Shown here piece by piece: positions 30,341-30,590 of a DNA stretch of 64,000 nucleotides. The notes below the pieces were generated by a model. That model ran no database searches and was not told the DNA's origin. It worked only from the letters and a program-made list of their open reading frames with translations. Made by a program: the position numbers and the translations under genes. Numbering within the stretch: position 1 is the first letter of the stretch; the number at the start of each line of letters is the position of its first letter. This DNA comes from a virus, in IMG/VR virus record IMGVR_UViG_3300045988_122072, positions 64,001 to 128,000 of that record; one strand, 5' to 3'.

Positions 30341-30464
30341 GCGATGATAGTCAAATGGTTAAGACGGCAGCGATTATTTTGAAGTGTCTAGCTAGACATG
30401 AACAGCAAGTTTGCAAAATTAATGCTCCAAGCTGCAATTGTGGGTTCGATTCCTACTCATCGCA
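30341..30464 (+). tRNA. interrupted tRNA-like gene (T arm and CTCCAAG loop resemble tRNA-Trp CCA); about 54-59-nt insert in the anticodon arm; no encoded CCA
   Basis: Acceptor GCGATGA/TCATCGC; D arm GTC-AAATGGTTAA-GAC; T arm GTGGG-TTCGATT-CCTAC. Anticodon stem halves GCAGC (30367-71) and GCTGC (30431-35) are separated by the insert. Confidence 0.5.
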
Positions 30465-30472
30465 ATCATATG

Positions 30473-30590
30473 TCTCCTGTAGCTCAGTCGGGTAGAGCGC
30501 TTAATAACGAGACTTGTAAAAGCCTTAAACAGCAAGTTTCTAACTGGTCTGTTAAACCAGAGGTCACAGGTTCGAGCCCTGTCAGGAGAC
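30473..30590 (+). tRNA. tRNA-Asn(GTT) interrupted by a 44-nt insert between D arm and anticodon arm (position 26/27); no encoded CCA
   Basis: TCTCCTG-TA-GCTC-AGTCGGGTA-GAGC-G-[30500-30543]-CTGGT-CTGTTAA-ACCAG-AGGTC-ACAGG-TTCGAGC-CCTGT-CAGGAGA-C. Confidence 0.6.

Follow-up and report, generated by a model that had tools for sequence, protein, structure and literature searches.

The DNA analysed here, called the window throughout, is a 64,000-nt stretch of a viral genome (positions 64,001 to 128,000 of the IMG/VR virus record IMGVR_UViG_3300045988_122072). Our subject is an array of five short RNA-like units (units 1–5, 30341–30801) that sits 35–495 nt upstream of an open reading frame (ORF) for a Ro60-like protein of 516 aa (30836–32386), with array and ORF on the same, plus strand. 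The hexamer CAGCAA occurs once in each unit, which makes five copies within 358 nt where ~0.09 would be expected by chance. A first-pass annotation, made from the letters alone, had described units 1 and 2 as tRNA genes interrupted by short structured inserts; it overlooked the three other motif copies (30607, 30672 and 30755) and the Ro60-like gene. Ahead of the array lies a sigma-70-type promoter (TTGACA-16-TATAAT with a TG-extended −10; 30248–30275, plus strand) that matches the consensus at 12 of 12 positions. In a sequence scan this was the sole strong plus-strand promoter site 5' of the ORF, and no terminator-like site was found between the two; an equivalent promoter is kept in relatives. 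One predicted transcript from this promoter likely covers units 1–5 together with the ORF.

Units 1 and 2 are tRNA-like bodies that carry a structured module, and the coordinates, stems, shared 12-mer and missing CCA first reported for them were all confirmed on the sequence. Unit 1 (30341–30464, plus strand; class B of the four classes described below) has a tRNA-Gly-like body with a perfect 7-bp acceptor stem (GCGATGA/TCATCGC), a 3-bp D stem (GTC/GAC) and a T arm (GTGGG-TTCGATT-CCTAC). Its anticodon-stem halves, GCAGC (30367–71) and GCTGC (30431–35), are separated by 59 nt, and this 59-nt module (30372–30430, plus strand) replaces the anticodon loop, of which only ..CTCCAA is left ahead of the 3' stem strand. 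The module consists of a closing helix, P0, in which 30373–81 pairs with 30414–23 (ATTATTTTG/CAAAATTAAT); a hairpin, P1 (GTGTCT-AGCT-AGACAT, 30384–99); the linker GAA; CAGCAA (30403–08); and then GTTT. P0 had been recognized in the first pass, and a helix of this kind is often present in units embedded in tRNA-like bodies.

Unit 2 (30473–30590, plus strand; class A) is a complete tRNA-Asn(GUU)-like cloverleaf of 118 nt in total, with the anticodon arm CTGGT-CTGTTAA-ACCAG (GTT) and the discriminator base C. Its module occupies 44 nt between the D arm and the anticodon arm (30500–30543, plus strand). In the window the 44 nt follow position 26, as in the original placement at 26/27. The inserts of relatives break the anticodon stem within its 5' strand, at 28/29 or 29/30, and a duplicated CT in the window permits either register. 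The helix first proposed within this insert (GAGACTTG/CAAGTTTC) appears in the minimum-energy fold of the window sequence but is unconserved, with 64% of alignment cells paired, no better than slid controls. The conserved hairpin P1 is instead GAGACTT-GTAA-AAGCCTT (30509–26), with one A·C mismatch, followed by the linker AAA, CAGCAA (30530–35) and GTTT. The 12-mer AACAGCAAGTTT found in both modules (30401–12 and 30528–39) is the core of a conserved motif, not a recent duplication.

The Rfam tRNA model matches units 1 and 2 end to end (48.7 and 42.6 bits, respectively; cut-off 29), and both pass as tRNA-like cloverleaf folds. Neither has the form of a functional decoder, that is, a contiguous anticodon stem closing a 7-nt U33 loop at an overall length of ~70–95 nt, and neither encodes CCA. 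ARAGORN missed both at default settings; the intron options suggested in the first pass recovered unit 1 as Gly(tcc) and miscalled unit 2. Further downstream (33045–34842), the window has six canonical tRNAs, five of which encode CCA, rather than the four, all with CCA, originally counted. The uninterrupted tRNA-Asn(GTT) at 33125 is there as reported and has only loose similarity to the unit 2 body, and a canonical tRNA-Gly(TCC) is also present in the window. The motif is absent from the main tRNA cluster.

The remaining three units stand alone, without a tRNA body. Unit 3 (30597–30651, plus strand) is a stem, AAGGCAC/GTGCCTT, around TAG-CAGCAA (30607–12)-CTTT and a loop of ~30 nt; unit 4 (30662–30729, plus strand) has the stem GAGACGC/GCGTCTC around TTA-CAGCAA (30672–77)-TTTA; and unit 5 (30742–30801, plus strand) has the stem CCAAAGACAC/GTGTCTTGGG around TAA-CAGCAA (30755–60)-ATTT. 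All three terminal stems appear in minimum-energy folds, and the units are kept in relatives. In unit 5, the nearest to the ORF, the strand AAGACA (30747–30752) is complementary to TGTCTT at the start codon (30837–42).

The ORF downstream (30836–32386, plus strand) matches Pfam DUF2828 in its all-helical N-terminal part and DUF7788 in its vWA-like C-terminal part, and nothing else; it falls into PHROG 850 ('RNA-binding protein'), and an NCBIfam search found nothing. An AlphaFold2 model built from a 25-sequence alignment (predicted local distance difference test score (pLDDT) 74, predicted template modelling score (pTM) 0.68) is all-helical over residues 32–245 and alpha/beta over residues 299–476. 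With moderate confidence, this is a helical-repeat ring followed by a vWA domain with a MIDAS (metal ion-dependent adhesion site), whose DxSxS motif (D304, S306 and S308) is invariant in the alignment. When the model was compared to the PDB with Foldseek, all top ten matches were Ro60/TROVE structures aligned over their full length (~530–580 columns, E values of 1e-8 to 5e-5), with the Ro60 of Thermus phage phiLo as the best (9KOP, 9L5Y) and with Xenopus and human Ro60 also among the top matches (1YVP, 2I91, 9NEP); vWA domains came next in the ranking. Based on this model, the protein is a fold-level relative of Ro60 and not a recognizable TROVE family member.

The protein family is very large. 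In a metagenomic protein search, all 8,000 candidates scored were hits (that is, at least 8,000 members), and tblastn found homologues with 25–43% identity in 710 deposited phage genomes, including those of phages of Escherichia (120), Mycobacterium (95), Salmonella (77), Vibrio (56), Listeria (54), Staphylococcus (42), Campylobacter (40), Enterococcus (36) and Bacillus (28). Felix O1-like, P100-like and KVP40-like phages and mycobacteriophages are represented. The homologues are annotated as "hypothetical", "RNA-binding protein" or "DUF2828" and, in mycobacteriophages, as "Ro-like RNA binding protein"; the Ro60 likeness of the protein is therefore already mirrored in some annotations. DUF2828 and DUF7788 also have uncharacterized plant and fungal members.

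To place the array in context, we compared about 150 related loci: 80 from a viral sample, with protein identities of 59–92%, and 67 from a genome sample, with identities down to ~52%. A search of phage and metagenome relatives had been advised in the first pass; the module recurs in ~150 loci. Across the 80 viral loci, the 900 nt upstream of the gene hold three to seven CAGCAA copies on the gene's strand, often 32–48 nt before a GGTTCRA T loop, and in most loci a unit lies at −60 to −110 from the start codon. The motif consensus from 218 distinct contexts is aaa-G-R-C-R-C-n-n-A-CAGCAA-n-U-U-U. In this extended form the motif was found 299 times upstream on the gene's strand, 15 times just downstream and not once inside the gene or on the opposite strand in the 517 kb of these viral loci. 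The 67 bacterial genome loci have 3.2 upstream copies on the gene's strand versus 0.22 on the other strand. They come mostly from gut Lachnospiraceae, Oscillospiraceae and other Clostridia, which indicates the host range.

Individual units differ in how widely they are kept. Unit 2 and its insert are present in 15 of 15 close relatives (87–92% identity) and in distant ones. Unit 1 is variable among the same 15, present in some and absent in others, and in four loci it is swapped for a different tRNA-like body with a longer insert, in which the hairpin is followed by CTACAGCAAA. CAGCAA itself is near-invariant, occurring at 491 of ~590 helix-anchored sites beside proteins that are 48–92% identical. 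Minor variants (ACTGCAA, ACCGCAA, ACAGCGA, ACAGCTA and ACAGCCA) follow the same hairpin and occur inside tRNA-like bodies, for example in loci L034, L052, L064, L069, L071, L099, L101, L103 and L165, so strict CAGCAA counts underestimate the family.

The linkage also holds in the reverse direction. When we started from the RNA pattern alone, 22 of 29 assessable arrays were followed by the gene, on the same strand and within 3.5 kb; among isolated motif matches, which are probably mostly chance hits, 9 of 60 were. The raw scan with an 18-nt pattern was dominated by single hits and became informative once arrays and isolated hits were separated. A nucleotide search of deposited phages with the array itself returned only a 40-nt tRNA-like match, which was uninformative.

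The same module is carried by several different RNA bodies. A scan anchored on the T loop and the 7-bp acceptor stem identified 180 motif-bearing tRNA-like units upstream of the gene in the 80 viral loci (122 distinct), and the viral and genome loci together gave 202 distinct tRNA-like units. The module is found in at least four different tRNA-derived scaffolds and also without a tRNA. In class A, which includes unit 2, the D arm is GCTC/GAGC, the closed 7-nt anticodon loop is kept and the module splits the 5' strand of the anticodon stem. In class B, which includes unit 1, the body is Gly-like, the module replaces the anticodon loop and NCC-AA is often kept ahead of the 3' stem strand. The module likewise replaces the loop in the different body of class C, and in class D it is attached to a reduced body of T arm and acceptor stem only.

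Both the tRNA stems and the P1 hairpin covary. In a 22-sequence alignment of class A, 95% of cells were paired and 20 of 28 pairs were compensatory, with a covariation score of 0.61 versus 0.18 for shuffled and ≤0.15 for slid partners; the acceptor and T stems were 100% paired, and the module hairpin was 89.6% paired with compensatory changes at five of seven pairs. For class B (15 sequences), 99.7% of cells were paired and 16 of 20 pairs were compensatory, including all five anticodon-stem pairs. In both classes each unit's own acceptor stem covaries at seven of seven pairs. Because MAFFT mis-registered the 5' strand of the class B hairpin, we analysed the hairpin anchored on CAGCAA instead: at 107 of 107 embedded sites a hairpin of at least 5 bp ends 2–4 nt 5' of CAGCAA, with 62 distinct stems. 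Over the whole set of motif sites, a perfect 6-bp partner for the GRCRC strand exists at 76%, compared to 15% of shuffles. The order of elements is GYGYC, loop, GRCRC, nnA, CAGCAA and nUUU in embedded modules, frequently with a short closing helix, and GRCRC, nnA, CAGCAA, 30–50 nt and GYGYC in stand-alone ones. As predicted structures, the two forms are circular permutations of each other, with one helix whose purine-rich strand runs 3' into single-stranded CAGCAA.

In the majority of the distinct units (141 of 202), a closed 7-nt anticodon loop is absent; otherwise same bodies carry different anticodons, and discriminator bases vary. An apparent rule that all retained anticodons read ANN codons was dropped, as the larger sample holds GCA, TAA, GTC and CAA. 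Units and canonical tRNAs have a 5' ATAT leader in common, and CCA is encoded in only 17% of units compared to 77% of neighbouring canonical tRNAs; from this combination we infer an RNase P-type release and a non-decoding role.

Eight cultured phages, with hosts in the Firmicutes, Proteobacteria, Actinobacteria and Campylobacterota, gave the same picture: in all eight, unannotated helix-nnA-CAGCAA units adjoin the gene on its strand. They lie upstream in Enterococcus phage EF1 (one unit), Listeria phage LMSP-25 (three) and Campylobacter phage NCTC12673 (two), and within an upstream tRNA cluster in Bacillus phage PK-3 (four). In Staphylococcus phage BE22 (three), Mycobacterium phage Nicholas (three) and the Felix O1-like Escherichia phage EC6 (four, among tRNAs) they lie downstream. 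The helices vary between units and phages yet stay complementary (GGAATC/GATTCC, GAGAGC/GCTCTC, AGACAC/GTGTCT, TGGTAC/GTACCA, GGACCCC/GGGGTCC). All units in the Listeria, Staphylococcus, Campylobacter, E. coli and Enterococcus phages consist of the module without a tRNA. In the Listeria phage (locus L301), a gene for RtcB ('tRNA splicing ligase') and an HD phosphohydrolase gene lie beside the Ro-like gene.

Vibrio phage ValKK3 (NC_028829) has a single unit, at 2440–2500 of its locus (L297), in the 5' untranslated region (UTR) of the gene itself; pairing is possible between the unit's GACAT strand and AUGUC at the start codon. By its sequence, this leader looks like an autoregulatory copy of the site; the alternative pairing of unit 5 with the start codon in the window suggests that translational autoregulation may operate there through the same site. 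One of the units in PK-3 (ON881243, L298; 1597–1725) and one in Nicholas (MF140421, L299; 4041–4170) have the permuted topology of YrlA, a bacterial Y RNA. In each, a terminal stem surrounds three arms (T arm, closed acceptor-like stem and D arm) and has the motif in its 5' strand, with CAGCTA or CAGCAA where YrlA has GNCGAA. Both are unannotated and adjoin DUF2828-type 'Ro-like' genes. The Nicholas unit scores 37.9 bits against the Rfam YrlA model (cut-off 69), with the three arms aligned and the Ro60-binding stem unaligned. These two units link the unpermuted units of the window to canonical YrlA.

Our reading, which we hold to be probable, is that units 1–5 (30341–30801) are Y-RNA-like partner RNAs of the divergent Ro60-like ring protein encoded downstream. 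It builds on the conservation of the units, their strand and gene linkage, the covariation and the predicted protein fold; binding, processing and any role in tethering, gating or as a decoy are its conjectural part. Across hosts whose RNA-processing enzymes differ, the Ro-like protein is the sole constant neighbour, which makes it the most likely reader of the motif. The array would then be a set of small non-coding RNAs, probably made together with the downstream gene from the one promoter. Its proposed protein-binding site, a helix of the GYGYC/GRCRC type with nnA-CAGCAA-nUUU, would correspond to the GNCGAA/GGUCCGA site that Y RNAs have on their 5' strand. Units 3–5 would present the module in the classical Y RNA way, with the 5' strand of a terminal stem bearing the motif, and in units 1 and 2 it would be circularly permuted into a closed hairpin and grafted onto a complete tRNA body. 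In unit 1 the graft would be at the anticodon-stem end, where YrlA puts its Ro60-binding stem; in unit 2 it would be within the 5' strand of this stem, with the GUU anticodon arm kept intact. With normal 5' and 3' ends and a canonical tRNA leader, the tRNA body would probably be released by RNase P and 3' processing, and its L-shaped part would then be open to tRNA-recognizing factors, as proposed for the tRNA-like domain of YrlA. As to downstream function, the RNAs might tether, gate, act as decoys or connect to the phage's own Rnl1, kinase-HD and Thg1-like enzymes.

A number of observations weigh against this reading. Neither phmmer nor a PDB profile search reached any Ro60 sequence, and the TROVE Pfam model was unmatched by the 516-aa ORF. 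The link to Ro60 is therefore at the level of the predicted fold only, from a model of moderate confidence (pLDDT 74, template modelling scores of 0.4–0.55). That CAGCAA is the site of this protein is a deduction from co-location and conservation. The canonical Ro60 motif, GNCGAAN0-1G, is absent from 30276–30835, and in the 80 loci it was observed 21 times compared to 27.8 expected. Motif variants do not track protein clades; with the motif essentially invariant, we set the co-evolution analysis aside as giving no signal either way. Seven of the 29 motif arrays are without a detectable gene within 3.5 kb. Single-sequence folding z-scores are unremarkable (−1.2 to −2.0) and too weak to serve as an argument, and the minimum-energy fold of unit 1 fails to reproduce the cloverleaf. 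Finally, 61 of 202 units, unit 2 included, keep an intact tRNA-like anticodon loop that would be superfluous for a pure scaffold, which hints at a further or different function.

The first-pass annotation had offered three explanations for the inserts: a new kind of intervening sequence, tRNA bodies acting as scaffolds for the 12-mer, or recently disrupted genes. The scaffold idea is supported, given that the module uses at least four scaffolds or none, is always beside one gene, and covaries in both scaffold and hairpin. If the inserts were intervening sequences, a phage or host endonuclease would cut them out and the kinase-HD enzyme and Rnl1 would rejoin the ends into working tRNA-Asn and tRNA-Gly, with the Ro60-like protein at most a helper. 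Excision of 30500–30543 indeed gives a flawless 74-nt tRNA-Asn(GUU), U33 is present in the 61 closed 7-nt loops, the NCC-AA of class B comprises the Gly anticodon and positions 37–38 just ahead of the 3' stem strand, and units have their 5' leader in common with canonical tRNAs; an RNA ligase, a polynucleotide kinase-HD and a Thg1-like enzyme are all encoded by the phage. Nonetheless, we regard splicing as distinctly improbable, if somewhat less so for class A, in which removal of the insert would yield a perfect tRNA. The module also occurs without any tRNA (units 3–5 and five cultured phages) and in permuted mimics unable to become tRNAs; 141 of 202 units have no loop to restore, and excision from unit 1 leaves G32 A33 instead of U33. 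Same bodies with different anticodons, variable discriminator bases and a mostly unencoded CCA, unlike the real tRNAs of the phage, also argue against it, as do the clustering of units at the Ro60-like gene and the canonical tRNA-Asn(GTT) and tRNA-Gly(TCC) that the window already has. No group I core was detected and no bulge-helix-bulge is visible in the inserts, and we know of no tRNA splicing endonuclease in bacteria. Disrupted genes, whether tRNA pseudogenes in decay or tRNA genes into which a small mobile element had recently inserted, would explain why only some close relatives have unit 1, others lacking it or having a replacement. This is very hard to reconcile with unit 2 and its insert being kept in all 15 close relatives and in distant ones, with stems that covary at 95–99.7% of cells paired, with the covarying insert hairpin, and with a motif that is strictly strand-specific and gene-linked across the viral loci. 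Relatives keep the inserts and the inserts covary, which refutes random decay by the test that the first-pass annotation itself had set. We also rejected, as a tandem-tRNA artefact with next to no probability of being real, a canonical YrlA running from the T arm of unit 1 to the D arm of unit 2 (30418–30526), with the first 12-mer pairing with GAGACTTG of unit 2. The Rfam YrlA model does match there (26 bits, E value 0.003), and CAAGTTT (30406–12) is complementary to GAGACTTG (30509–16), but the score is far under the cut-off of 69, TCATCGC and TCTCCTG are unable to form a closed acceptor-like stem, the acceptor stem of each unit covaries on its own, most relatives have unit 2 and no unit 1, and tandem tRNAs are the false-positive mode named for this model by Chen et al. 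(PMC4201824).

Two other readings concern who uses the motif. The units could be purely cis-acting elements of the mRNA leader, operators for the control of translation or stability by the protein or another factor that are never released to act in trans. The single promoter without a terminator ahead of the ORF, the unit placed 60–110 nt before the start codon in most loci, the sole copy of ValKK3 in the 5' UTR and the potential of that copy and of unit 5 to pair with the start codon all fit this idea. We consider it unlikely as a full account. The Staphylococcus, E. coli and Mycobacterium phages have their units, interleaved with tRNAs, on the downstream side of the gene, where they could not form its leader; the 7-bp acceptor stems of units 1 and 2 are perfect and covary, and together with the tRNA-type leaders of these units they are determinants of RNase P release; and arrays of three to seven copies exceed the needs of an operator. 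A cis role is compatible with partner RNAs of the Ro60-like protein, as the unit nearest the gene may serve as an operator. Unlikely, too, is that another factor reads the motif, such as a host RNase for which it is a processing signal or some other phage protein, with adjacency reflecting shared transcription with the tRNA cluster. Binding of the motif by the Ro60-like protein is so far a proposal, arrays are often in or beside tRNA clusters, and 7 of 29 have no detectable gene nearby. Against this, the same motif occurs in phages of Mycobacterium, Campylobacter, Vibrio, Listeria and Clostridia, whose RNA-processing enzymes differ while the Ro-like gene is constant, and it is missing from the window's own main tRNA cluster (33045–34842).

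A more speculative idea, to which we give a low probability, combines binding and splicing. Class A RNAs, unit 2 among them, might have two states, being stored as pro-tRNAs or decoys while the Ro60-like ring holds the CAGCAA module, and the kinase-HD and Rnl1 enzymes might then splice the module out to release a working tRNA-Asn when needed, for example after attack by a host anticodon nuclease. If true, a bacterial virus would have protein-catalysed tRNA splicing under the direction of a Ro60-type ribonucleoprotein.

If units 1–5 are indeed Y-RNA-like partners of the downstream protein, the very large orphan family DUF2828/DUF7788 gains a candidate RNA partner and a possible Ro60-like mode of action. 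The Y RNA concept would extend to a different recognition motif and to a new architecture, in which a complete, unpermuted tRNA carries the ring-binding module; this form bears on the published idea that YrlA originated from tRNAs. For annotation, the units are at present unannotated in phage genomes or at risk of being called as tRNA pseudogenes or intron-containing tRNAs. In the literature we found no published link of DUF2828-type proteins to partner RNAs, the DUF2828 papers being unrelated (plant, tardigrade), and "Ro-like RNA binding protein" only in genome announcements; in Rfam 15, no family covers units 3–5 or the module. The RNA family, its CAGCAA signature, its breadth and its tRNA-embedded form appear to be undescribed so far.

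Genes for tRNA or RNA repair lie ~8–14 kb downstream of the array, all on the plus strand: a T4 Rnl1-type RNA ligase (40338–41444), a nucleotidyltransferase (41710–42519), a polynucleotide kinase (AAA_33) fused to an HD domain (43107–44033) and a Thg1-like 3'–5' polymerase (46061–46894). A functional link of this gene set to the RNA array is conjectural, and the adjacent repair genes suggest a role in the phage–host conflict over tRNA integrity. Just upstream of the array, 28655–29824 encodes a divergent adenylosuccinate-synthetase-like protein (Pfam E value 1.4e-29; PHROG 1211, '2-aminooxy adenylosuccinate synthetase') that scores far below every NCBIfam PurA cut-off and reaches 27.7 bits with PurZ (cut-off 300). 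Together with a class V aminotransferase (36373–37473), a dCMP deaminase (37678–38106) and an HD protein (38936–39757), it may take part in nucleotide or DNA modification. The phage genome also contains a TnpB-type gene (IS605 OrfB/Cas12f-like TNB) at 51124–52236. In the canonical tRNA cluster, a tRNA-Ile(TAT)-like gene (33285–33377), the only one of the six without an encoded CCA, has an unusual 26-nt variable region, ATTAAGGCTCCAGATTAGAGCACGTT, that is conserved in relatives (for example, L001 5480–5572).

A second kind of tRNA insert was seen in related phages, with none in the window. The interrupted tRNAs, for example tRNA-Leu(UAA), are otherwise normal and encode CCA, and the structured inserts, 47–80 nt long, fall precisely between U34 and A35 (CTT|...|AAAA); they are present in some phages and absent in others (for example, L004 4606–4735 compared to L005 4606–4688). 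Other instances are in L001, L002, L008, L027, L028, L031 and L065 (129–133 nt), L010 and L011 (7039–7158), L003, L008, L009 and L011 (146–149 nt), and L004 and L005 (150 nt). Their closing helices covary (GGGTAT/ATACTC, GCTGAT/ATCAGT), and conserved features are AGCCAGNGC and a hairpin loop of GGCAGCA or GAGGTCATCAC. Cyanobacterial tRNA-Leu has its group I intron at this same site, but the insert here is ~5x smaller, and Rfam matches only the tRNA. On these features it is a candidate for a true mini-intron or a mobile insert.

Among known systems, tRNA introns resemble the window's inserts in being extra sequence in or near the anticodon arm, and non-canonical positions are known for archaeal ones. 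The first-pass annotation had judged that the inserts fit neither the group I nor the archaeal and eukaryal bulge-helix-bulge class, and we agree. Group I introns have a conserved P1–P9 core, exceed about 200 nt and lie in the anticodon loop; the inserts here are 44 and 59 nt, and no Rfam intron family matched them even at E values up to 10. No bulge-helix-bulge (3-4-3) is found at the unit 2 junctions in the predicted fold, where the junctions fall in unstructured linkers of 10 and 3 nt. Unlike introns, the same module is found outside tRNAs, most scaffolds could not yield a tRNA, and the hosts are bacteria. Transfer-messenger RNA (tmRNA) and viral tRNA-like structures likewise join a tRNA-like acceptor and T arm to a non-tRNA module, and class D in particular resembles tmRNA. 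The units differ in being without an mRNA-like reading frame or SmpB partner and in mostly not encoding CCA, and nothing in them beyond the T arm matched tmRNA models.

The closest phage system is the Ro60 of Thermus phage phiLo, which binds two Y-like RNAs, Yrl1 and Yrl2, encoded just upstream of its gene (PMC12135203; 9KOP, 9L5Y). As in the window, a Ro60-type protein is encoded by the phage and Y-like RNA genes are directly upstream, and the phiLo structures are the best matches to the window protein. The phiLo RNAs differ in that they lack a tRNA body and have their CGAA motif within a stem-bulge-stem. The phiLo protein is also a recognizable Ro60 homologue whose binding was shown experimentally, whereas binding by the window protein is a prediction.

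Genes for Y RNAs lie no more than 4 kb from Ro60, on its strand, and the RNAs have a short motif on the 5' strand that Ro60 contacts; the bacterial ones hold a mimic of tRNA, and the end of its anticodon stem continues into the Ro60-binding stem (PMC4201824; doi 10.1101/312249). The search of Chen et al. (2014) for such RNAs was limited to genomes annotated with a TROVE domain (PMC4201824). The protein here belongs to DUF2828/DUF7788 and not to the TROVE Pfam family. The units differ from YrlA (RF02553) in several respects. The Rfam YrlA model gives 26–38 bits, with the gathering score of 69 reached in no locus examined. Neither GNCGAAN0-1G nor GGUCCGA was found near the 5' end, and the invariant CAGCAA, beside the GRCRC helix strand, occupies the analogous position. 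The window tRNA is unpermuted and ends at a normal 7-bp acceptor stem, with the module as a closed hairpin insert, and unit 2 retains a full anticodon arm. With regard to the terminal stem with a 5'-strand site, units 3–5 fit in their predicted folds, with covarying helix partners, and units 1 and 2 end, as predicted, at the acceptor stem with the module as an internal hairpin. A tRNA-like domain is present in units 1 and 2, where all stems covary; units 3–5 are without it and resemble YrlB or the phiLo Yrl RNAs. The array also has likenesses to the YrlA–Ro60/Rsr system (PMC4201824; doi 10.1101/312249). In both, small RNAs, often in multiple copies, lie within a few kb of a Ro60-type gene on the same strand, and the Y RNA limit of 4 kb holds here for a protein that is Ro60-like by fold only. 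In both, a short conserved single-stranded motif is on the strand leaving a helix, and an L-shaped tRNA-like domain bears the protein-binding module, here a proposed one, at its anticodon-stem end. Members of the present family with the permuted YrlA topology itself are found in Nicholas and PK-3.

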